Shown here in pieces: positions 3,170 to 62,585 of a stretch of 64,000 nucleotides of DNA. The stretch is from a virus. The notes under the pieces were generated by a model. The model saw only the letters and a list, made by a program, of their open reading frames with translations. It ran no database searches and was not told the origin of the DNA. The stretch lies in IMG/VR virus record IMGVR_UViG_3300036760_001167, positions 32,001 through 96,000 of that record. One strand, given 5' to 3'. The translations under genes and the position numbers were made by a program. Each line of letters starts with the position of its first letter. The stretch's first letter is position 1.

Positions 3170-3261
3170 TTCGAGACCGCCCGCGCGAAGAGCGAGAACG
3201 CTCCCCACACCATCACGTTCGCGGCCACTCCCACGAGCAGCCACGTCTTGAAGTTCTTCAT
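3166..3261 (-). CDS. 31-aa single-helix membrane protein
   Basis: MKNFKTWLLVGVAANVMVWGAFSLFARAVSK; overlaps both the rtcB stop and the tadE start. Confidence 0.55.
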   Translation of the reverse strand: MKNFKTWLLVGVAANVMVWGAFSLFARAVSK

Positions 3262-4502
3262 CGCGTGCCTCCTGTCTTCCGGCGCCTGTCGTCGACGCCC
3301 TTGTAGTTCGCGATCGCGCGGAGCCTGTAGTCGACCCGCACGAGGTCGGCCTGGTCGGCCATTACCGTCTCGACGTCCTTGTACGCCTGCGGGCTCTCGT
3401 CCAGCAGGCTCGCCGCGTCGCCGTCCTGCCAGGCGACGCCCTCCATCCGCGCCGCGAAGTCCTCGAGCGCGACCTCCTTCCTGGCCCTGCCGCGCGACAT
3501 CACGCGGCCCGCGCCGTGCGAACAGCTCTCGTAGGACTCGGGGTTCCCGAGCCCGCTCACGACGAAGCTCGCCTGGCCCATGGCGCCGGGGATCAGGCCG
3601 CGGCTCGAGACGTGCGCGGCGATCGCGCCCTTGCGCGTGACGTACGCGTGCCGCCCGAGCTCCGCGACGCCCTCGAAGCTCACGTAGTTGTGGTGGCAGT
3701 TCACCTCGTCCTCGATCAGGAGGCGCTTCCCGGCGACCTCCTCGAGGGCGGCGTGGGCGCGGCGCAGGATCTGCCGACGGTTCTCGAGCGCGTACCGCTG
3801 CGCCCAGGAGACGTCCGCCACGTAGGCCGCGAACTCGCTGCCGCCGCGGTCGAGCCAGGCCAGGTCGAGCTCCGGCACCGTCTCGCCGGCCGCCGCGCGC
3901 TCCGCGCTGGGGTGCGGCTTGAGCGGCACGTCGGCGCCGTGGAGCAGCGCTGCGGCGTCGCCGTAGACCCGCGCCAGCTTGTTCCCCGCGCCGCGCGAGC
4001 CGGAGTGCAGCAGGATCCACACCTGCCCGAGCTCGTCGACGCTGAGCTCCACGAAGTGGTTCCCCGCGCCGAGCGTGCCGATCTGCCGGCCCGCGAGCGG
4101 GACGTCGTCGACCCTCGACGGCGCCGGGTCGCAGGCGATGAACTCCGCCGCCTCGTCGGACATCGCCCTGTCCCAGTGCCCCAGCCCCGCCGGGACGAGC
4201 CGCCCCACAGCCTCCACCCAGGCCGCGGCGTCGCCGTCGCCCAAGTCGCCCAAGTCCAGCGCCAGCCTGCGCGCGGCCATGCCGCAGCCGATGTCCACGC
4301 CGACCGCCATCGGGATGACCGCGTCCTCGGTCACGAGGACGCTGCCGATCGTGGCGCCGTGGCCGAGGTGCGCGTCCGGCATCAGCGCGACGGGCAGGCT
4401 CAGGATCGCGAGCTCCGCGGTCCGCTCCGCGGCCTCGCGGGCGTTGTCATCCAGGATGCTGGCCCAGCTCCGGACCCTGCCGTTCGCGAACGTCTCACGC
4501 AT
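3258..4502 (-). CDS. rtcB: RtcB RNA ligase
   Basis: MPDAHLG, VGVDIGCGM, GTLGAGNHFVE, HSGSRG, HHNY, TRKGA, SCSHGAGR, DESPQAYKD motifs. Confidence 0.97.
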   Translation of the reverse strand: MRETFANGRVRSWASILDDNAREAAERTAELAILSLPVALMPDAHLGHGATIGSVLVTEDAVIPMAVGVDIGCGMAARRLALDLGDLGDGDAAAWVEAVGRLVPAGLGHWDRAMSDEAAEFIACDPAPSRVDDVPLAGRQIGTLGAGNHFVELSVDELGQVWILLHSGSRGAGNKLARVYGDAAALLHGADVPLKPHPSAERAAAGETVPELDLAWLDRGGSEFAAYVADVSWAQRYALENRRQILRRAHAALEEVAGKRLLIEDEVNCHHNYVSFEGVAELGRHAYVTRKGAIAAHVSSRGLIPGAMGQASFVVSGLGNPESYESCSHGAGRVMSRGRARKEVALEDFAARMEGVAWQDGDAASLLDESPQAYKDVETVMADQADLVRVDYRLRAIANYKGVDDRRRKTGGTR

Positions 4503-7554: not shown

Positions 7555-7654
7555 TCTATTATCGGCAGCGCGCCCGCGGTGAGTACCGGCCGAAAGGGCC
7601 AGAACCGCCCTCCCCGGCAGCCTAGGTCGAAGGTCTGGTATGCGCCATACTAGG
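7555..7654 (-). promoter_or_regulatory. Conserved promoter/operator element, copy 1
   Basis: Minus strand: CTAGTATGGCGCATACCAGACCTTCGACCTAGG...CGGTAC...CCGATAAT. Confidence 0.8.
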
Positions 7655-9018: not shown

Positions 9019-9954
9019 TCGGGCACCTCCCGCCAGCAGGACTTGCAGCACAGGACGTCATCGTGGTAGGTCGTGGCGGCGCCGCAGCAGGGGCTGAGGC
9101 ACTCGCAGCGCGAGCCGTTGGGGTAGGTGCCGAGGCAGACCTCGCAGGTGAGCAGGCCGCCGCGGACGTCGTCGTCCTCGCCGGAGCTCAGCCGCCGCGC
9201 CCACTCGCGCTCGGTCAGGGGCGCGTCGCCGAAGTGGCCCCGCACGCCGTGGGCGTGCTCGCCCTGGATCCCGGACCCGCACCAGCACGCGCTCATGCCG
9301 CGCTCCTGAGTGCTAGCGCCTCGTCGAGGGGCACGTCGACGCCGAGCTCCCACGTGACCTCGCAGAACATCAGGTCGAAGACGGCCGCGGCCTCGTCGTT
9401 GCCGACGGGCCGGCCGATCGCCGCGAGCGCGTCGAGCCGCTCGACGGCCTTGGCCTCGGGCATGCGCCGCATCATGGGGTCGCCGCCTTGCAGCCGTCGC
9501 ACGTGGGCTCGCGGTCGGTAGGCTCGCACAGAGACGCGAACGCCCACTCGCCGCAGCGCCAGTTGAGGAGCTGCTGGGGAGGAGGGCAGCCCGCGGGCGC
9601 CTTCATGCCGGTGGACTCGACGGCGTGGATGACGCCGTCGAGGTGGCGGGCGTTCTTGAGGCGATCGCTCATGAGTTGTCCACCCTGTGCTCGGCCTTGC
9701 AGGCGGGACACGCGTCGCCGTCGCCGCAGTCGTCGCAGCCGCGGCGGTCGTCGCGCTCGTCGTCGCGCTCGTACCAGGGGAGCTCGTAGCGGCAGCCGAC
9801 GACGTGCGTCTCGCCGCTCAGCACGTCCCGGCCGCACAGTGGGCAGGTGGGCACTGGCTCGGCCGCGGGCAGGTAGAGCTCGCTGCGGCCGGTGAAGGTC
9901 CTGATTGCTCCGAACATCTTGCGCTCCTTCTCTCGGGGTCCGCTTGCTGTCTAC

Positions 9955-10054
9955 TTCATTATCGGCAGCGGCGGGCCCCGGGAGCACCGCCCGATCGGGC
10001 CGTTTCCGGCCCTGGGGCGGCCTAGGCGGAAGGTCTAGTGTGGCGCGCACTAGT
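9955..10054 (-). promoter_or_regulatory. Conserved promoter/operator element, copy 2
   Basis: Plus strand attatcggcagc ... cctagg-cggaaggtctagtgtggcgcgcactag, same spacing as copy 1. Confidence 0.8.
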
Positions 10055-10354
10055 GGTCGTGCGCCCGCCGGTCAGGACCTGGGTGATGACGCAGCGCGCG
10101 CGGCCCTGCACCCACGTGACCTCGGCGCGGAGCACCAGCACGCCTCGCCGCCTCGACGGCACCTCGTAGGTCATGCCGGCACCGCCACGTAGGCCGCGTC
10201 CTCGAGCGGGATGCCGCGGGCGTCCATGAACCTGGCGCCGTAGCAGCCCCACACGCCCAGCATCTGGACGCAGTAGATCGCCTCGTGGCGCAGGCCCGCG
10301 AGCCTGCCTGCGGCGGAGCGGATGCTCGCCGGGACTCTCTCCTCCATCATCTTG

Positions 10355-11430
10355 ACCTCCTTCTCTCGGGCCCACCTTACACCGTGTCGGCCGAGAAGGG
10401 AACGGGCGCCTCCCACCGCTGCCGCCGCTCACGCTCGGGATCGTCGGGCCGGCTCGACACCGAGCCACCCATCTCCGGCTCGCTGCGCGATCGCCCGCGC
10501 CTCGTCCGGTCACTCCGTCCACGCATGCTGCTCCGGCCTCACCCTTGCGGGCGGTGGTGCTGCGGCGCCCCGCTGGCGGCGGGCGGGTTGCGGGATCGGC
10601 CCGCCAAGTTGTGCCCGCTGCCAGCGGGGCGCCGCAGGTTCCTAGCGGCGCCTTACTCCGCCAGCCGGGCGGCGGCGGGCGACGTGTCCTCCGGCCCGCC
10701 AGCTCCCCGAAGGTCGCGATTACGCGGGGCGGTCGACTTCGCTGCCACACCGCCCGGATTCGGGCGGAGGTTCTGGCGGGACCGAGGGACGGCGGGCGGG
10801 TGCTACCGTCCGCAGCGGCGTCGGCTCTTGCGACTCTCAGGGTTCGTCTGGGCATCTAGGATCTCGCGTTCCCGCGTCGCCGCGGGGCAGCACGTCCACA
10901 GCGTGCGCCGCTTCACCAAGAGGGGAAACTATTCCGCCCAACCTGGGTCGGGAGTCTATCCGAGGCTTTACGACGACCTCGGTCCCGTTTCGCCGGACTT
11001 CACTTGACCGGCTTCGAGAGCGGCGGAGGTTCCCGGCGTACGGAGAACATCTCCCGCCGAACTACCTCGCGCTCGCTCTCGGAGCCGTTCAGGCTCCGTG
11101 CGGCCGATCGCTTGACCGGCTTCGAGAGCGGACCCGTGTGCCCACGTCCCTGGGGCTGCGCTCTCGCGCTCCCTGGGTTCCGGCTGGCCCAGCGCCTCTC
11201 GGCGCGCTGGCGGTTCGGCCTGGCCTTGCACCTCTGGTCTCGCTCTCGGAGCCGTTCAGGCTCCGTGTCTTGGCGCTCGGCGGGGAGTACGATGCCCCGG
11301 AACTCAGGGGGAATCCGGTCAGGCCCTGAGGGCCGCCGCGTACCTCCTGGAACCGCGGGCCCACTTCGCCCGCCGAGCCGGATCTGCTTCTGCCGCTCTG
11401 GCTTCCACGCTCCGGTCTGTTCGCCTTACA
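10355..11430 (-). ncRNA. Candidate large structured non-coding RNA or leader (~1.07 kb)
   Basis: No convincing coupled ORF; starts just after promoter copy 3; duplicated 29-nt and 21-nt modules; 18-bp perfect inverted repeat; many hairpins. Confidence 0.55.
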
Positions 11431-11432
11431 TC

Positions 11433-11532
11433 ATCATTATCGGCAGCCGTGCCCCCGCAGCGTACCGGCCGAAGGGCCCGAGATCGCCTGGGCGTCGGCC
11501 TAGGCCGGAGGTCTAGTGTGGCGCGTACTAGA
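11433..11532 (-). promoter_or_regulatory. Conserved promoter/operator element, copy 3 (overlaps the terL stop)
   Basis: attatcggcagc ... cctagg-ccggaggtctagtgtggcgcgtactag. Confidence 0.8.
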
Positions 11533-13306
11533 TCCTGATGCGCTGGCCCGGCTTCTTGGGCGCGGGCTTCTTCGCGCGGCGCCGCTCGTCGGCCTCGCGG
11601 CGGAGCCGGCGCGCGTAGGACTCCTGCGGCTCCGCGGGCTTCGGCTTCCGCTCGGGCCGCGGCGGCGCGGGCTGCTCCGCGGGCTCCGGCTGCGCGTCCT
11701 CGCCGGGCTTCGGGTCCGTCTCGCGCGCGTACGCGCTCCTCTTCTTGGGCTTCGCGCCCGCGGCGATCGCGTCGCCGCGCGCCTCCCACGACAGCGCGCC
11801 GGCCGCGGCGGCGTCGATCTTGTTCGGGGACATCGGCGCCTCCTTCGAGATCGTCCAGAGCTGCCGGCCCTCGTCGTCGTACGAGGCGATCGGCTTCCTC
11901 CGCGTGTTCTCGACGTGCCGCGCCATCACCTCGTCGCCGTCGTGCGTGACGTCGCCGGCCTTGATCGACGCGGCGTACTTGCGGACCATGATCGCGGCCT
12001 GCTTCGGCCGGGACATCAGCCACGCGACCACGACCTTGTCGCCGTACTTCCCCTGCCACCTGTCGAGCAGCGCCTCGATGTTCGCGTACTGCGAGCCGGG
12101 GTCGACGTAGACGCGCCAGACCGACCAGGTCTCCATCGCCTCGGAGAGCGTGCCGTCGACCTCGTCGAAGTCGTGCTCGTAGTCGTCGTTCGCGGTCTCC
12201 GGCTTGGTCCAGATCCCGAGCGGCCACTGCCAGCCCGAGTCGACCTCGGTGGCGACCATCGCGAGCGCGTCCTCGTAGCGGGCGCCGTCGACGCCGACCG
12301 TGACCAGCGAGCCGGGCTTCGGCTGCTCCCGCTCCCTCTTGAGCTTGCGCCAGCGCTCCCCGTCGAACGCGCGGTCCTCGCCGGGCACCACGCGGTTGAG
12401 GAAGTAGCGCTCCGCCTGCGCGAGCTCGCCGCGCTTGAGGAGGTCGTCGATCTCGGACGAGATCCGCTCGGTGTCGACCCACCAGCTCGAGCCGTACAGG
12501 TTCCTGAGGACGCGCATGCGCTCGCGCTTGTTCTTGATGGAGCCGCGGCCGCCCTTGCCCATCATCCTGAAGACGCCGACGCCGGACTCGTGGGTCGCCT
12601 GCGCGACGCTCTGCTCGCTCGGGTCCCACGCGTTGCCGGTCTCGAGGAAGCGGCCGCCCATGCCGGCCAGGTTGCGGCGCTGCGTGTCGGCGAGCTTGCG
12701 GCCGCCGTTGCGCTTGGTCCAGTCGTGCGCCTCGTCCTCGACCGCGAACGTGATCCGCTGCCCGAGCCGGCTCCGGGCGCTCGCGGTGACGGGCTCGATC
12801 TTGCCGCCGTTCGGGAGGTTGATCCTGGTCTCCCCGGTGTCCGGGATCTCCGCCTTGAGGTTGCCGAGCTCGATCATCGGCACCAGCGATCGCCAGACGT
12901 TGGCCGTCTGGTCCTCCGAGACCGCCGTGACCTGGATCCACGGCGTCGCCCACGGCCGGCCGACCGGCTCGCCGTCCGCGTCCCACCCGTCGAACAGCAC
13001 GGGGCCGAAGGACTCGACGATGATCATGGCCGCGGCGAAGGGCCCCTTGCCGAGCTTCTGCGGCTCGACGATCTGGCCGCCGCGGTTGTAGCGGAACGCG
13101 CCGCTCGGCTTGGTCAGGTCCTTGACCGCGTCCGGCTTCAGCTCGTAGAAGTTGAGGACGAACTCCTGCTGCCAGTCCGACAGCAGGAACGGCTCGCCCG
13201 CGAACTCGCCGTCGGGGATGACGCACAGGTCCTGGATCGCGTCGAGCACTGCCCACCCGAGCGTCGGCAGCTCGCCCTCCGTGCGCGGCCCGCGCCAGCC
13301 CGTCAC
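11528..13306 (-). CDS. terL: Terminase large subunit (actinophage type)
   Basis: PTLGW N-terminus, PQKLGKGP Walker A, AVSEDQT, EDEAH Walker B, TGNAWDP, GVDGA nuclease motif, KIDAAAA. Confidence 0.95.
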   Translation of the reverse strand: MTGWRGPRTEGELPTLGWAVLDAIQDLCVIPDGEFAGEPFLLSDWQQEFVLNFYELKPDAVKDLTKPSGAFRYNRGGQIVEPQKLGKGPFAAAMIIVESFGPVLFDGWDADGEPVGRPWATPWIQVTAVSEDQTANVWRSLVPMIELGNLKAEIPDTGETRINLPNGGKIEPVTASARSRLGQRITFAVEDEAHDWTKRNGGRKLADTQRRNLAGMGGRFLETGNAWDPSEQSVAQATHESGVGVFRMMGKGGRGSIKNKRERMRVLRNLYGSSWWVDTERISSEIDDLLKRGELAQAERYFLNRVVPGEDRAFDGERWRKLKREREQPKPGSLVTVGVDGARYEDALAMVATEVDSGWQWPLGIWTKPETANDDYEHDFDEVDGTLSEAMETWSVWRVYVDPGSQYANIEALLDRWQGKYGDKVVVAWLMSRPKQAAIMVRKYAASIKAGDVTHDGDEVMARHVENTRRKPIASYDDEGRQLWTISKEAPMSPNKIDAAAAGALSWEARGDAIAAGAKPKKRSAYARETDPKPGEDAQPEPAEQPAPPRPERKPKPAEPQESYARRLRREADERRRAKKPAPKKPGQRIRI

Positions 13307-13746
13307 AGCCGGCCCACCCGCTCGAGCTCGTCCTTGGCGGCGAGCACCCTCTTCGCCTGCTCCTCGGACCCGCCCTCGTGGTCGGGGTGCGCGGCCTTGA
13401 TCGCGGCCCTGAACGCAGCCCGCGCGTCCTCCACCGACGCGTCGGGGCCGATCCCGAGCACCCGGAGGGCCGCCTCGAGCTTCTGGTTGGCGAAGTTGAA
13501 CCCGCTGACCCGCCCGAAGCCCTCCGCGGCGTCGGCCCTGTCCTGCGCCTCCGTCCGCCCGCGCTCGTCGCCGACGAAGACCCGCTCGCCGCGCGCGTAG
13601 GCGTCGCGCTGCTCAGCCCGCATGCGCGTGTGGGGCCCGGGGAAGTGCCAGTCCCGGCAGTCGCCGCACCAGGGGATCTCGGTCTTGGTCCCGTAGCGCT
13701 CGTTGAAGATGTCGGCCGCGCTGCGCTTCGCCGGGCGTCCGCTCAC
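13303..13746 (-). CDS. J-domain (DnaJ-like) protein
   Basis: LRVLGIGPDASVEDARAAFRAAIKAAHPDHEGGS with intact HPD; GTGA overlaps with both terS and terL. Confidence 0.85.
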   Translation of the reverse strand: MSGRPAKRSAADIFNERYGTKTEIPWCGDCRDWHFPGPHTRMRAEQRDAYARGERVFVGDERGRTEAQDRADAAEGFGRVSGFNFANQKLEAALRVLGIGPDASVEDARAAFRAAIKAAHPDHEGGSEEQAKRVLAAKDELERVGRL

Positions 13747-14177
13747 GACTGCACCCTCGGGACGTGGACCCGCGCCGGGCCCTTCGCCCTCGGCGCCGGC
13801 TCCTCCTCCTCCTCGATCGGCTCGTCCGTCTCCCAGCGCAGCTTCATCATCGCCATGGGCGTGAGGCCCAGCCGGTCCTCGAGCTGGCGCGCCTCGGCGC
13901 GGAGCTGCGGGTTCGCGTTCGACTGCTCGGACTCGACCAGGATCCGGACGTAGCGCGCGACCACCCGCACCCAGCCCAGCCGCTCCCACTCGCTCGCCTG
14001 GGGCGTCGCCCAGAGCTCCGACCAGACCGTCGCCTCCTCGATCGCCCCGATCAGTGGCTCGTCCAGCGGGAACGCGGGCGGCGGGCCCTTCCGGCCCTCG
14101 TACGGGAGCTGCCTGAACCCCGCGGTCGCCCTCCGGCGCCGGGTGAGCTCCGGGTCCTTCTTCGGGGGTCCGGGCAT
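13743..14177 (-). CDS. terS: Terminase small subunit
   Basis: MPGPPKKDP..., WSELWATPQASEW, EARQLEDRLGLTPMAMMKLRW (actinophage TerS pattern); upstream of terL. Confidence 0.85.
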   Translation of the reverse strand: MPGPPKKDPELTRRRRATAGFRQLPYEGRKGPPPAFPLDEPLIGAIEEATVWSELWATPQASEWERLGWVRVVARYVRILVESEQSNANPQLRAEARQLEDRLGLTPMAMMKLRWETDEPIEEEEEPAPRAKGPARVHVPRVQS

Positions 14178-14180
14178 CGG

Positions 14181-14480
14181 TCACAGCACCTCCCGGAGCC
14201 GGTCCGCGATGTGCTGCGCCGTCGGGTCGCCCGCCGCCGCCTGCGCCCGCAGGATCGGCTCCGCCATGCGGAGGAGCTCCCTCGCCCGGCGCGCCTTGCG
14301 GACCTCGTCCCAGCGCTTGTGCTGCGTCGCGCTGATCTTGCCGGCGCGGTCGAGCGGCGCCGGCCGATCGCCCGAGCCTGAGCTCGCCGGCGGGTGATCC
14401 TCGGCCTGGCCATCCTGGGCTAGGTCGACCGGCCTAGGCTGCGCGCGGCCGGCCTGGCGCTGCCTGCGGGACCGTCCCAT
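14181..14480 (-). CDS. Basic hypothetical protein, probably leaderless
   Basis: ATG lies a few nt after a GTAAGAT box; Arg-rich. Confidence 0.55.
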   Translation of the reverse strand: MGRSRRQRQAGRAQPRPVDLAQDGQAEDHPPASSGSGDRPAPLDRAGKISATQHKRWDEVRKARRARELLRMAEPILRAQAAAGDPTAQHIADRLREVL

Positions 14481-14489
14481 GTAGCTATC

Positions 14490-15025
14490 TTACACCGAGT
14501 AACTCCCGGCCGGATCCCGTTCACAGGGGCTCGGGCCTACTACGCCGGTCGGTCGGTGAAAGACAGGTCTTTGCCAAGCCCCGCCCTCCATTCGGACGGT
14601 GACCTTCACCCAAGGACCTAGGCCGCGGCCTCAGCGACTACAGACCTAGGTCCTATCAGGCCGCGCATCGGACCTAGAAGACGTAGCTCAACGTGACGCC
14701 CGCCCGATGTGACTAGACCGATATGGCCACGGGCCCTGTGGCCTAGGGCGGCCGATCGGGCCGGCACGATCGGGCAGCCTAGGCCGTGTTGCGATCCGCG
14801 ATCGCCCAAGGGCCTAGGCCGTCGACGCCCTGCGCGACGATCGGGCGGCCTACGCCCGGCGAGATCGAAGGGCCTAGGCCGCTCCCGTCTCTGGCGACTT
14901 TCCGCAGGCTAGGCCTTGCGGTCTTGCGGCGAGATCGAAGGGCCTAGGCCGGCGACTTTCGGGCCGGCGACTTCCGGCCTGTTAGGCCCGGCGACTTTCC
15001 GGCCGATAGCTGGCGACTTTCCGGG
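14490..15025. repeat. CTAG/CCTAGG-rich repeat block; candidate genome terminus or packaging site
   Basis: About ten CTAG sites; gggcctaggccg x3; ggcgagatcgaagggcctaggccg x2; ggcgactt(t)c x5; lies between HNH/Dam and terS. Confidence 0.6.
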
Positions 15026-15534
15026 ACCATGACCTGCCAGCGCCCGGGCAGCGGCTCCGGGTCGCCTGGCCGCATCACGACGATCGCGGGCGCGAACGGC
15101 GCCTGCACACGCCCGCCGTCGAAGCGGATCCGGCCGCGGACCAGCCTCACCTCCGAGCCCGCGCAGCTCGCCTGCCACCACCGCGTCTCGGTGCGCGCGG
15201 GGAGCAGGCAGACGACCACGATCCCGCCGCGCGCCTCGAGCCTCGCGCGCGCGACGAAGTCCGGGGTGTGCTTGGAGTAGGGCGGGTTCAGGAAGGCGGC
15301 CTGCCCGCGCCTGGCCCAGCGGCCCGGCGAGAGCGCGTCGGCCATGAAGCCGCCGGGCCCGATCCACCGGGCGGCCTTGTGGTTGGCCTCGTTCGCGGCC
15401 GCGTCTACGGCGAAGCGGAACTCCCGGTCCAGCTCGTCGTAGAGCTCCCGCGGGGTCCCGTAGTCCGTCTTAGCCGCGGCGGTCGCCGGGTTCGCCCCGC
15501 CGAACGTCGTCGCGCTACCCCGGCCTCCTGCCAC
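14944..15534 (-). CDS. Phage DNA N6-adenine methyltransferase (Dam-like)
   Basis: YGTPRELYDELDREFRFAVDAAA, FLNPPYS, LLPARTETRWW, RGRIRF. Confidence 0.92.
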   Translation of the reverse strand: MAGGRGSATTFGGANPATAAAKTDYGTPRELYDELDREFRFAVDAAANEANHKAARWIGPGGFMADALSPGRWARRGQAAFLNPPYSKHTPDFVARARLEARGGIVVVCLLPARTETRWWQASCAGSEVRLVRGRIRFDGGRVQAPFAPAIVVMRPGDPEPLPGRWQVMVPESRQLSAGKSPGLTGRKSPARKSPA

Positions 15535-18026: not shown

Positions 18027-18680
18027 TCATGCGGACGCCAGCCGCGCGGGCCGGAGCGCGTCGGCCGCGCGCCGCGGCGCCCTGCGGAGCCACGCGCGCA
18101 GCCTGTGCGGCCACGTCCTGAGCCTGACGACCGCGAACGCCTCGGGCCTGTAGACCGAGACGGCCGCCTGCTGCTGGACCCTGATCGCGGTCAGCGGCCT
18201 GGCGAAGAACTCGTCGCCGACCGACTCGCCGACGTCGACCGCGGGCGTGCCCTGGAGCCAGAGCTGGGCGGCCTGCCCGAACGCGCCCACGACCGCCTGG
18301 TCGCCGCGCGTCCTGGCCGTGCCCACCGCGAGCTGGGTCCGGCGCTCGACGCGGCGGGCGCAGCGTCGGATGGCCCGCTCGTTGGTCTCCAGCGGCCGGA
18401 CGCGGCGGCGCTCGGCGCCGGAGTCCTCGATCCTGCGCGCGACGAAGCCGCCCAGCGCGTTCTGGAACAGCGGCAGCGCGCGGGCCTGCACGTACGCCGT
18501 GACCGCCGGCCCGTCACCGGCCATGTCCGCCGTGATCGGCAGGAGCATCGCGACCCGCTCCACGTCCGTGTCCACGACGTCGAAGTCGAACTCGCCGCCG
18601 CGCCTCTTCCGCTCGGCGATGTACCTGACCCTGTTCGACCTGACCTCGCCGACCGCCACCATCTCCTGGATGCCGCTCAT
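18027..18680 (-). CDS. Truncated/degenerate HK97-fold major capsid homologue
   Basis: SNRVRYIAE; FDVVDTDVERVAMLLPITADMAGDGPAVTAYVQAR; AVVGAFGQAAQLW...DEFFARPLTAIRVQQQAAVSVYRPEAFAVVRL resemble conserved HK97 capsid segments; only 217 aa. Confidence 0.7.
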   Translation of the reverse strand: MSGIQEMVAVGEVRSNRVRYIAERKRRGGEFDFDVVDTDVERVAMLLPITADMAGDGPAVTAYVQARALPLFQNALGGFVARRIEDSGAERRRVRPLETNERAIRRCARRVERRTQLAVGTARTRGDQAVVGAFGQAAQLWLQGTPAVDVGESVGDEFFARPLTAIRVQQQAAVSVYRPEAFAVVRLRTWPHRLRAWLRRAPRRAADALRPARLASA

Positions 18681-30947: not shown

Positions 30948-31613
30948 TCAGAACCCCGCCCGCTCGTTGTAGGTCGCCTCCCCGCACGCGCACGTCCAGA
31001 GGATCACGCCGCTCGGCAGCCGCTGGCTCGTCGCGCCGTCCTGGTAGGAGAAGGAGTGCCTGTGCGCGTGGCGCGCGGCCTCGTCCATGTCGTCAAGCGT
31101 CGCGGCGACCGCGCGCGACTCCGCGTCCTTCTCCAGCGCCTCGAACCGCTGCGCGCCCGCGGGCGTCAGGACCGCGCCGCCCTCGGCCATGACGACGAAC
31201 ATGCCCTCCGGCACCGCGTCGTCGGCGGCAACCGCCCGCCGCAGCGCGTCGACGTTCGAGACGAGCTCCGCGTCGAGCCGCTCCTCGAGGTCCATGCCGC
31301 ACATGACGTTCCACACGACGGCGGCGCCGTGGTCCTCCGTGACGTCGCTCCCCTCGCCGTCGAGCTCGCGCTCGCCGGAGAGCCACGCGATCAGGTGCCT
31401 GAACGCGCAGTCCTGGAACTCCAGCAGCTCCCCGCGCGTCTCGGCCTTGCGCCAGTTGTCCGCGCCGTACGCCTCCGCCCCGGCGGTGTAGTGGTCGGCG
31501 ACGCGGCGGAGCGAGGTGCGCGGGATGAGCGTGTACCGCGGCTTGCCCGCCGCGCTGTCCCTGTGGAACCCTGACGGGAACTCTCGCATGCTGCCGGAGC
31601 CCTGGATCGTCAC
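30948..31613 (-). CDS. dATP/dGTP diphosphohydrolase (DUF5664-like)
   Basis: REFPSGFHRDSAAGKPRYTLIP..GAEAYGADNWRK..AFRHL..EDHGAAVVWN. Confidence 0.85.
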   Translation of the reverse strand: MTIQGSGSMREFPSGFHRDSAAGKPRYTLIPRTSLRRVADHYTAGAEAYGADNWRKAETRGELLEFQDCAFRHLIAWLSGERELDGEGSDVTEDHGAAVVWNVMCGMDLEERLDAELVSNVDALRRAVAADDAVPEGMFVVMAEGGAVLTPAGAQRFEALEKDAESRAVAATLDDMDEAARHAHRHSFSYQDGATSQRLPSGVILWTCACGEATYNERAGF

Positions 31614-55941: not shown

Positions 55942-56943
55942 TCACTCGACCTCCTCGAGCACCGAGCGGGTCGCGTCGAGCTGCGCCTGCAGCGTCGCCA
56001 CGCGCGCCTCGACGGTGCCGCGCGTCTCGCCGCTCGTCTCGAACCTGAGCAGCCAGGACGCGTCCTCGGTGGTGAGGCCGAAGGGGATGAGGTCGGTGAG
56101 CATCTGGGTGACGTCGGTGCCGCTGACGACGGCGCCTGCGAGCGCGCTCGCGAAGAGCGCCTGGCCGAAGCGGACCCACGCCGAGATCTTCTTGAAGTTG
56201 GTGGTGCCCGCGTGCGCCCTGACCTCGACGCTGCCGTGGCGCGGGTAGGCGTGCAGGTTGATGGAGCCGCGCGGGCCGACGGCGCCGATCGCGCGGAGGT
56301 CGCGGGCCCTCAGCAGCGCCGCGGTGCTCTCGCTCGTCCAGGCGGCGCAGTAGCTGTTGTTCCTACGGCTCGGCGCGACCATGCGGAAGATGAGGTCCTG
56401 GCGCTCGACGAACGCGATGACCTGCGCGCGGATCTCGTCGACGCCCTGCGCCCTCATGTCGTGGTGGACGTGCAGGCCGCACGAGCGGTTGACGGTCGCG
56501 CCGCAGTCGACGAGGGCCTGGCAGACAAGCTGGAGCTGGGCGAAGCCGCTCTCGCCGCGGAGCTTGGGGCTGACCAGCTCGAGGCCGGCGCCGTTGACGC
56601 TGCAGTCGGTCTTGAGCTCCCAGTGCGAGCCGTTCGACGCGCGGTAGCCGTACACGTCGGCGTTGATCCCGACGCGCGCCAGCGCCGCGAGGATCTCGCT
56701 GCGCCCTGGGCCCGTCAGCTCAAGCTCCACGCCGAAGGCGCGGCCCTGGTTGGAGCGCCGCGCACTAGTGGTCGTGGTGCCGCGCTGCGTGCCGTTCGTC
56801 CTGTTGTAGCGGGCGCGGTAGCAGGGCTTGCAGTAGTTGACGAAGCGGCCGCTGGACATGTAGAAGTTCGCGCGCGTCGCTGGAAGCGAGCGCTGGCAGC
56901 CGCGGCAGGTCTTCGTCTCGGTGCTCTCGGTGAAGTCAGGCAC
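55942..56943 (-). CDS. Amidoligase (COOH-NH2 ligase) family protein with N-terminal Zn ribbon
   Basis: FGVELE, WELKTDCS, ELVSPKL, NRSCGLHVH, SRRNNSYC, HGSVEVRAH.GT. Confidence 0.9.
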   Translation of the reverse strand: MPDFTESTETKTCRGCQRSLPATRANFYMSSGRFVNYCKPCYRARYNRTNGTQRGTTTTSARRSNQGRAFGVELELTGPGRSEILAALARVGINADVYGYRASNGSHWELKTDCSVNGAGLELVSPKLRGESGFAQLQLVCQALVDCGATVNRSCGLHVHHDMRAQGVDEIRAQVIAFVERQDLIFRMVAPSRRNNSYCAAWTSESTAALLRARDLRAIGAVGPRGSINLHAYPRHGSVEVRAHAGTTNFKKISAWVRFGQALFASALAGAVVSGTDVTQMLTDLIPFGLTTEDASWLLRFETSGETRGTVEARVATLQAQLDATRSVLEEVE

Positions 56944-56989: not shown

Positions 56990-57089
56990 TCTATTATCGG
57001 CCCCGGCGGCCGATCGCCGCACCGGACCAAGGGCCGGAGTCGGCCCGCGGGCCGCCCTAGGCCGCAGGTCTAGTGTGGCGCATACTAGT
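56990..57089 (-). promoter_or_regulatory. Conserved promoter/operator element, copy 4
   Basis: ctattatcgg ... cctagg-ccgcaggtctagtgtggcgcatactag, same spacing. Confidence 0.8.
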
Positions 57090-59696: not shown

Positions 59697-59775
59697 TCTA
59701 TTATCGGCTGCGCGGGCCCTCCGGCGTACCGCCCGGAAGGCTGGTGTCTCGCAGGGGGCGGCCTAGGTCGAAGGG
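59697..59775 (-). promoter_or_regulatory. Conserved promoter/operator element, copy 5
   Basis: ctattatcggc..gtaccgcccggaagg..cctaggtcgaagg (spacing 1 nt shorter). Confidence 0.75.
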
Positions 59776-62494: not shown

Positions 62495-62585
62495 TTCATT
62501 ATCGGCTCTTCGGGCCGTGCGGAGGATGGGCCTATCGGGCCGTCTTCTGGCGGCCGGCGGCCTAGACCCTTGGTCCAGTATAATC
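62495..62585 (-). promoter_or_regulatory. Conserved element copy 6, with a possible divergent TATAAT on the plus strand
   Basis: ttcattatcggc ... cctag with the same spacing; TATAAT at 62579-62584. Confidence 0.65.

Follow-up and report, generated by a model that had tools for sequence, protein, structure and literature searches.

We examined a 64,000-nucleotide stretch of viral DNA (the window). It was taken from a 106,510-bp IMG/VR virus record that has terminal repeats, of which it spans bases 32001-96000; coordinates are those of the window unless given as genome positions. GC content is 72% throughout the window, and the minus strand holds nearly all of the genes, including those for the small terminase (13743-14177) and the 592-aa large terminase (terL, 11528-13306; PHROG terL matches at E 3e-79; GC3 of ~1.0). 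The best isolated relative by terL among the matches listed was the Streptomyces phage Kromp (43% identity) and all of the listed matches were actinophages, which points to an actinobacterium as the host. In the 90% protein cluster of terL, a copy identical to that of the record comes from a separate Logan contig of 13 kb, and the first protein encoded past terL (59 aa) was recovered in identical form from the Logan source. Thus, the record is probably not an assembly artifact. Elsewhere in the genome, we noted a tyrosine integrase (genome 99609-100121, within a 434-aa open frame) adjoining a large tRNA cluster (genome 95356-97740), an arrangement that suggests that the phage is probably temperate and integrating.

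The stop codon of terL (11528-11530) overlaps the start of a promoter-like cassette (c2, 11434-11531, minus strand), so that the stretch described here (10355-11430) lies directly 3' of terL. The first gene past the gap (10171-10350, minus strand) has a GGAGG ribosome binding site (RBS) and a GC3 of 0.90-0.92, and its 59-aa product was called identically in the JGI/IMG and Logan sources. The protein had no match in Pfam or PHROG and belongs to no known family, and IMG/VR contained no relatives of it or of the neighboring 182-aa protein. The stretch between the two genes is non-coding by every available test. Its phase-specific GC3 does not exceed 0.83, compared to 0.95-1.0 in the flanking genes, and a codon model trained on this genome scored all of the ORFs in the gap at -0.4 to -1.3 bits per codon (terL, +0.48; 59-aa gene, +0.19). 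Pfam and PHROG searches of the stretch returned no matches, a plus-strand ORF of 170 aa had no homologue among 5.8 billion proteins, and the other ORFs of the gap were absent from the protein collection. A six-frame comparison of the stretch with the rest of the genome and with related loci revealed no similarity except to a diverged cassette copy near 62497-62574. An arginine-rich small ORF of 49 aa (10526-10377, minus strand) is doubtful, with -0.38 bits per codon over its stop-to-stop frame (10377-10538). ARAGORN and Rfam identified no tRNA or tmRNA in 10355-11430 and seven tRNAs elsewhere in the window. An earlier, sequence-only reading of the locus had described the stretch as the longest gap without a credible gene. 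The gap is indeed free of genes, and among the stretches of the 106.5-kb genome that lack codon periodicity it ranks second in length, after the tRNA cluster.

By its position, the stretch opens an accessory island of 12.5 kb (window 11527 to about -1050; genome 30951-43527) that separates terL from portal, two genes that usually form a pair. In L003, the nearest relative in IMG/VR (terL 71% identical), terL is followed by the portal gene within about 115 nt, and in phage Kromp terL runs directly into portal. Given this adjacency in both relatives, and a portal homologue located 12.5 kb downstream of terL in this genome, the stretch can be regarded as the leading edge of a lineage-specific island. 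Further, the inspected relatives, with terL identities of 72% or less, are without the non-coding stretch. In addition to the latter, the island contains small Cys-rich ORFs, an HTH_17 protein, an RtcB ligase (3258-4502), a tRNA-Arg gene (648-721) and, immediately upstream of portal, a WhiB-like ORF (genome ~31030-31290). Some island genes are presumably Tad-like, encoding Tad pseudopilins, as assigned in the sequence-only reading. Past the portal, the homologue of the next L003 gene matches in two pieces (genome 29154-28981 and 27693-26989); the extra ~1.3 kb between them (within genome 26989-29154) may represent an inserted domain, an intein or a fusion.

Cassette c2 is one of at least five clear paralogous cassettes of ~98 nt (7558-7653, 9956-10053, 11434-11531, 57018-57088 and 59700-59774); the diverged copy near 62497-62574 is a weaker sixth. 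The cassettes carry a CTAGT-N9-ACTAG palindrome and a CCTAGG site, together with a GC hairpin and a GCCGATAAT box that is invariant among them, and c2 retains every motif common to its paralogues. The four clear copies other than c2 are each positioned ~40-55 nt before a start codon. An Amidoligase_2 gene (55945-56943) is among the genes preceded by a cassette. A generic sigma-70 scan found no promoter at c2, and the phage genome had no sigma-70 r2 domain or identifiable phage sigma factor. The "conserved promoter (copy 3)" attributed to the stretch is a real cassette with at least five clear paralogues, albeit only a putative promoter. The opposite end of the stretch is an unstructured tail (10351-10530, minus strand) that appears to combine the remnant of a decayed cassette with a 5' UTR and RBS region, the latter homologous, by alignment, to the UTR of cassette c1. 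The tail shares a 23-nt match with 9915-9937, and GACACGG replaces GATAAT in its -10 box. Because the cassette immediately upstream of the 59-aa gene has decayed, c2 is the nearest intact copy, which suggests that the gene now depends on c2.

A striking feature of the stretch is a module present in two tandem copies. An exact 29-mer occurs at 11072-11100 and 11239-11267, with the copies spaced 167 nt apart, and a 21-mer occurs at 11003-11023 and 11111-11131, extending to 24 nt with a single mismatch (23/24). The repeats were significant in blastn-short searches (E of 5e-12 for the 29-mer and 3e-7 for the 21-mer), and all of the coordinates given for them in the sequence-only reading were confirmed. 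In the minus strand, each unit is predicted to begin with a hairpin, H1, whose 6 bp close a 5-nt loop; a 7-bp stem (P2) closed around an insert, a GAA and a further hairpin (H3) follow. Module B (11103-11267) places H1 at 11264-11248, P2 at 11247-11241/11130-11124 and, after the GAA, H3 at 11120-11103, and its P2 encloses a branched insert of ~110 nt. Module A (10992-11100) has H1 at 11097-11081, P2 at 11080-11074/11022-11016, GAA and H3 at 11012-10992, and a hairpin insert of ~51 nt within P2. The arms match at 29/29 and 23/24 positions and the two inserts share no similarity, so the module is indeed duplicated, with a constant scaffold of arms and inserts that differ.

Compared more closely, the 24-mer and 29-mer arms turned out to be the same 19-bp site in opposite orientations (16/19 identical). 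As a result, each unit can fold either as three helices or as one long hairpin, with P2 extending to a 19-bp helix at the cost of H1 and H3. No more than 1.5 kcal/mol separates the three-helix from the extended fold on the minus strand, and the minimum free energy (MFE) structure mixes both. On the plus strand, the long hairpin is favored by 12 kcal/mol because two positions that are A.C on the minus strand are G.U there. Arms 1 and 3 are the same, as are arms 2 and 4, which also allows a central pairing of arms 2 and 3 that is 6-7 kcal/mol less favorable. Even with up to 8 mismatches allowed, the genome contained only the two tandem units, and the sites occurred nowhere else. A 19-mer with 3 mismatches upstream of portal was rejected as a chance match located inside the coding motif of the WhiB-like ORF.

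The whole stretch folds 56-60 kcal/mol better than its dinucleotide shuffles (z -6.4 minus, -6.0 plus). The excess is concentrated in ~400 nt comprising the twin modules (10990-11275; z -4.4 minus, -5.7 plus) and the segment of a 25-bp hairpin (10530-10645; z -5.8 minus, -5.7 plus). Folding is moderate at 10640-10990 (z -2.8 minus, -1.7 plus), weak at 11268-11430 (z -1.9 minus, -1.8 plus) and at the level of the shuffles in the tail (10355-10530; z about 0). For reference, flanking coding windows had z values of -1.4 to +1.9 and other intergenic regions were mostly between about -3 and +1, the exception being 14306-15115 (-4.6). The proposal of a 1.07-kb structured RNA is thus supported in that the excess folding is significant, but the structure is patchy, covering ~400 nt, and is absent from 10355-10530.

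Outside the modules, the minus-strand prediction includes a 5'-proximal hairpin domain of ~100 nt (11276-11377) with a 9-bp closing helix (11377-11369/11284-11276; pairing probability 1.00) and two long irregular hairpins within 10695-10893, one at 10893-10800 (16 bp at the base) and the other at 10780-10695 (helix probability 0.96-0.99). Closer to the 59-aa gene is the GC-rich hairpin at 10560-10637. The 18-bp perfect stem noted previously (10560-10577 with 10620-10637) is real and extends to 25 bp (18 perfect pairs plus 6), with a small apical hairpin and without a U-tract. It could be a terminator lacking the U-tract or an RNase III-type duplex. GNRA tetraloops, which correspond to the GCAA/GAAA-type loops of the sequence-only reading, are present four times in the minus-strand MFE structure, compared to a mean of 0.65 in shuffles (0/60 shuffles reached 4); the plus-strand MFE structure has none.

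The clues to the strand conflict, some favoring the minus strand and others the plus strand or single-stranded DNA (ssDNA). The orientation of the genes and of the cassette points to the minus strand, as do the GNRA tetraloops, enriched on that strand and missing from the other, and H3 of module B, which stays paired on that strand by a G.U that is an A.C mismatch on the plus strand. Conversely, the G.U pairs of the extended module helices and of the 25-bp stem exist on the plus strand only, a single position of the stem being G.U there but A.C on the minus strand.

Searches for relatives returned none for the stretch. Rfam 15 had no match in it at the gathering threshold (GOLLD, ROOL, HEARO, OLE, raiA, riboswitches, introns, self-cleaving ribozymes and Y RNA-like families included) and, at E up to 10, yielded only sub-threshold miRNA and sRNA matches on the big hairpin, in agreement with the initial failure to place the RNA in a known class. 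Similarly, blastn of the region and of the modules against INPHARED (50,697 phage records) and PLSDB (72,556 plasmids) found nothing beyond chance. Exact and degenerate scans of IMG/VR retrieved no matches to the arm motifs or to the cassette motifs; a P2-plus-gap pattern had 2 matches, both in coding DNA and dismissed as chance. The arm 20-mer matched once in each of 4 unrelated genomes among 185,579 species genomes (GTDB), with no similarity in the flanks, as expected by chance. Exact matching of the same 20-mer in this set identified no CRISPR array with the repeat and no genome in which it occurred repeatedly. Loci anchored on terL were drawn from IMG/VR, JGI metagenomes and GTDB and had terL identities of 72% or less; a closer relative (91% identical terL, 593 aa) is on a 2.4-kb Logan contig. 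Without a homologue there is neither covariation evidence nor evidence of a class, and a new large RNA class is, for the same reason, unproven. Candidate partner genes (TROVE/Ro60, reverse transcriptase, ParB, serine recombinase, Y1 transposase and zinc-ribbon TnpB) were absent from the genome. Integron attC sites were rejected, as the GTTCAGG and CTTGACC of the arms misfit the RYYYAAC/GTTRRRY cores and no integrase is nearby, and hammerhead-like and tRNA-like readings were rejected by inspection or test.

Several named systems resemble the stretch in part. Like the large phage RNAs GOLLD and ROOL, it is long, ORF-free and strongly structured by prediction, and it is carried in a genome with tRNA genes. 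However, it consists of local hairpins in series, not of a single ornate multi-domain fold, and it produced no cmscan match to them even at E up to 10. Furthermore, GOLLD and ROOL are defined as Rfam families, whereas no family can be defined for a stretch with no homologues. Constant inverted-repeat arms around a variable interior, in units of 101 and 160 bp placed side by side, are also reminiscent of MITE, BOX and PATE elements. Yet the stretch has two copies only, no transposase and no target-site duplication; we rejected a MITE/PATE/REP-like mobile element for lack of dispersed copies and because Y1_Tnp and TnpB zinc-ribbon domains are absent.

Phages also carry leader RNAs that act in cis, such as the nut and put antiterminators of lambda and HK022, respectively, and the sites for RNase III in the early transcripts of T7 and lambda. 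The hairpin modules of the stretch are located 160-430 nt past the cassette and upstream of long hairpins, and each has a pentaloop hairpin beside a short conserved single-stranded or stem motif, as in nut and put; this is a resemblance only. Duplexes of at least 20 bp, such as those of the T7 and lambda RNase III sites, are present as well. In contrast to nut and put, the modules are in tandem rather than one per operon, match no consensus and have no N-like factor identified in this phage. A different precedent for ORF-free regions comes from non-RepA cluster A mycobacteriophages, which have RNA-based origins that are transcribed, ORF-free over ~400-670 bp and devoid of recognizable conserved motifs (Wetzel et al., 2020; PMC7157519). 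These origins adjoin parABS in extrachromosomal prophages (PMC7157519). The stretch is likewise an ORF-free actinophage region, one for which transcription is predicted. It differs in following terL, in belonging to a phage with a tyrosine integrase and without a ParB_N domain, and in having no sequence similarity to any INPHARED phage.

Taken together, the data lead us to favor, tentatively and at less than even odds, a promoter-driven structured leader on the minus strand that acts in cis on the 12.5-kb accessory island. Transcription would start from cassette c2 on the minus strand and provide the 59-aa gene, the first of the island, with a leader of ~1.08 kb that is rich in hairpins and free of ORFs. 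The functional core would be the two near-identical modules, followed by the long GC-rich duplexes, and each module could alternate between three stacked helices and one 19-bp extended hairpin. These elements may act in cis as sites of processing or stability, with the duplexes of at least 20 bp serving as RNase III-type substrates. Alternatively, the cis role could be to control read-through into the island, conformationally or by an antitermination-type mechanism, and the twin modules may offer the same platform twice to one factor. We infer the transcription, strand and cis role of the leader, and any binding partner, from the non-coding character of the stretch, the intact c2 on the strand of the genes, the excess folding, the exact arms around unrelated inserts and the nearly isoenergetic minus-strand folds. 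Evidence against such a leader includes the lack of homologues in searchable collections, the absence of the region from the inspected terL relatives, the silent sigma-70 scan, the patchiness of the structure and the 12 kcal/mol by which the plus strand folds better in the long-hairpin form. Moreover, the decayed cassette indicates that dead sequence is tolerated within the stretch, and sequestration of the RBS by the last hairpin is weak (z about 0).

The stretch could instead be a non-functional spacer, the relic of one or more lost genes once driven by c2 plus a decayed cassette, with hairpins that arose by local duplication, inverted or direct, and are not selected. The 3' 176 nt are indeed a degenerate cassette and UTR without structure, the proximal 160 nt are weakly structured, and the region is lineage-specific, absent from the inspected relatives and situated in an accessory island, where turnover is expected. 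However, neither leftover codon periodicity nor protein similarity was detected in any frame; neutral decay would not easily yield a z of -6 or exact arms beside inserts that are unrelated, and GNRA loops are enriched on the putative transcribed strand. We consider a relic rather doubtful, albeit the strongest rival of the leader. The inverted arms could alternatively operate in DNA. Their four ~19-bp sites (16/19), which alternate in orientation over 260 bp, and a 78-bp palindrome would then be bound by a replication initiator, a regulator or a recombinase, as in an origin, an operator array or a recombination site, or would form ssDNA hairpins. That the 24-mer and 29-mer are inverted copies of one site found nowhere else in the genome is consistent with this, as are the long-hairpin folds favored on the plus strand or in ssDNA and the ORF-free origins of ~600 bp documented in actinophages (PMC7157519). 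Binding sites in double-stranded DNA do not, on the other hand, require inserts as strongly self-complementary as these, and at 72% GC there is no AT-rich region for unwinding. Nor are there replication genes nearby or a ParB, Rep-like gene or recombinase adjacent, the only integrase being 57 kb away, and a role at the DNA level is in our view unlikely.

The interpretation originally proposed, a stand-alone non-coding RNA of ~0.8-0.9 kb that runs from c2 to the 25-bp hairpin and sequesters or scaffolds a host or phage protein through the twin modules, draws on the same structural data as the cis-acting leader. The 25-bp hairpin could end such a transcript ~200 nt before the 59-aa gene, and two identical platforms would suit a dimeric ligand. 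Yet the hairpin lacks the U-tract of a terminator, the structure is patchy rather than one ornate fold, and no family, homologue or partner gene (TROVE, RT, TnpB and Y1 transposase absent) accompanies it, which makes an RNA acting in trans distinctly unlikely. What stands of the original claim of a new large RNA is that the stretch is non-coding, folded, preceded by a cassette and unmatched in Rfam; what does not is the implied single structure, as the folding is patchy and the arms are inverted repeats that make a long-hairpin or DNA reading equally possible. The stretch is the orphan of a single genome; a new large structured non-coding RNA is plausible but unproven, 1.07 kb overstates its structured part, and the sponge, scaffold or packaging roles suggested for it are pure speculation. 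Most improbable of the readings that we entertained is a new class of phage RNA element in which a bistable platform is presented twice on a ~0.9-kb transcript, either targeting a host or phage protein in trans or being cut at both 29-mers to free a unit-length RNA that the phage RtcB (3258-4502) could join or circularize.

Should the cis-acting leader or a related RNA be real, the locus would provide an actinophage-encoded structured RNA element without a family, placed at the entry to an accessory island, and could show how islands that split terL from portal get switched on. Although a single-genome observation, the stretch is a concrete and well-mapped target. Other parts of the window also fold above chance. 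A palindrome-rich region of 810 nt between genes upstream of the small terminase gene (14306-15115) has weak codon periodicity and z values of -4.6 and -4.3; the sequence-only reading took it for a packaging site. The junction of two small genes at 9526-9675 (150 nt) shows excess folding as well (z -3.6 minus, -4.8 plus). Lastly, a second, short match to the major-capsid-like protein of relative L003 was identified at 18135-18293 (43% over 53 aa), far from the structural genes and in agreement with the shrunken capsid homologue noted in the sequence-only reading.
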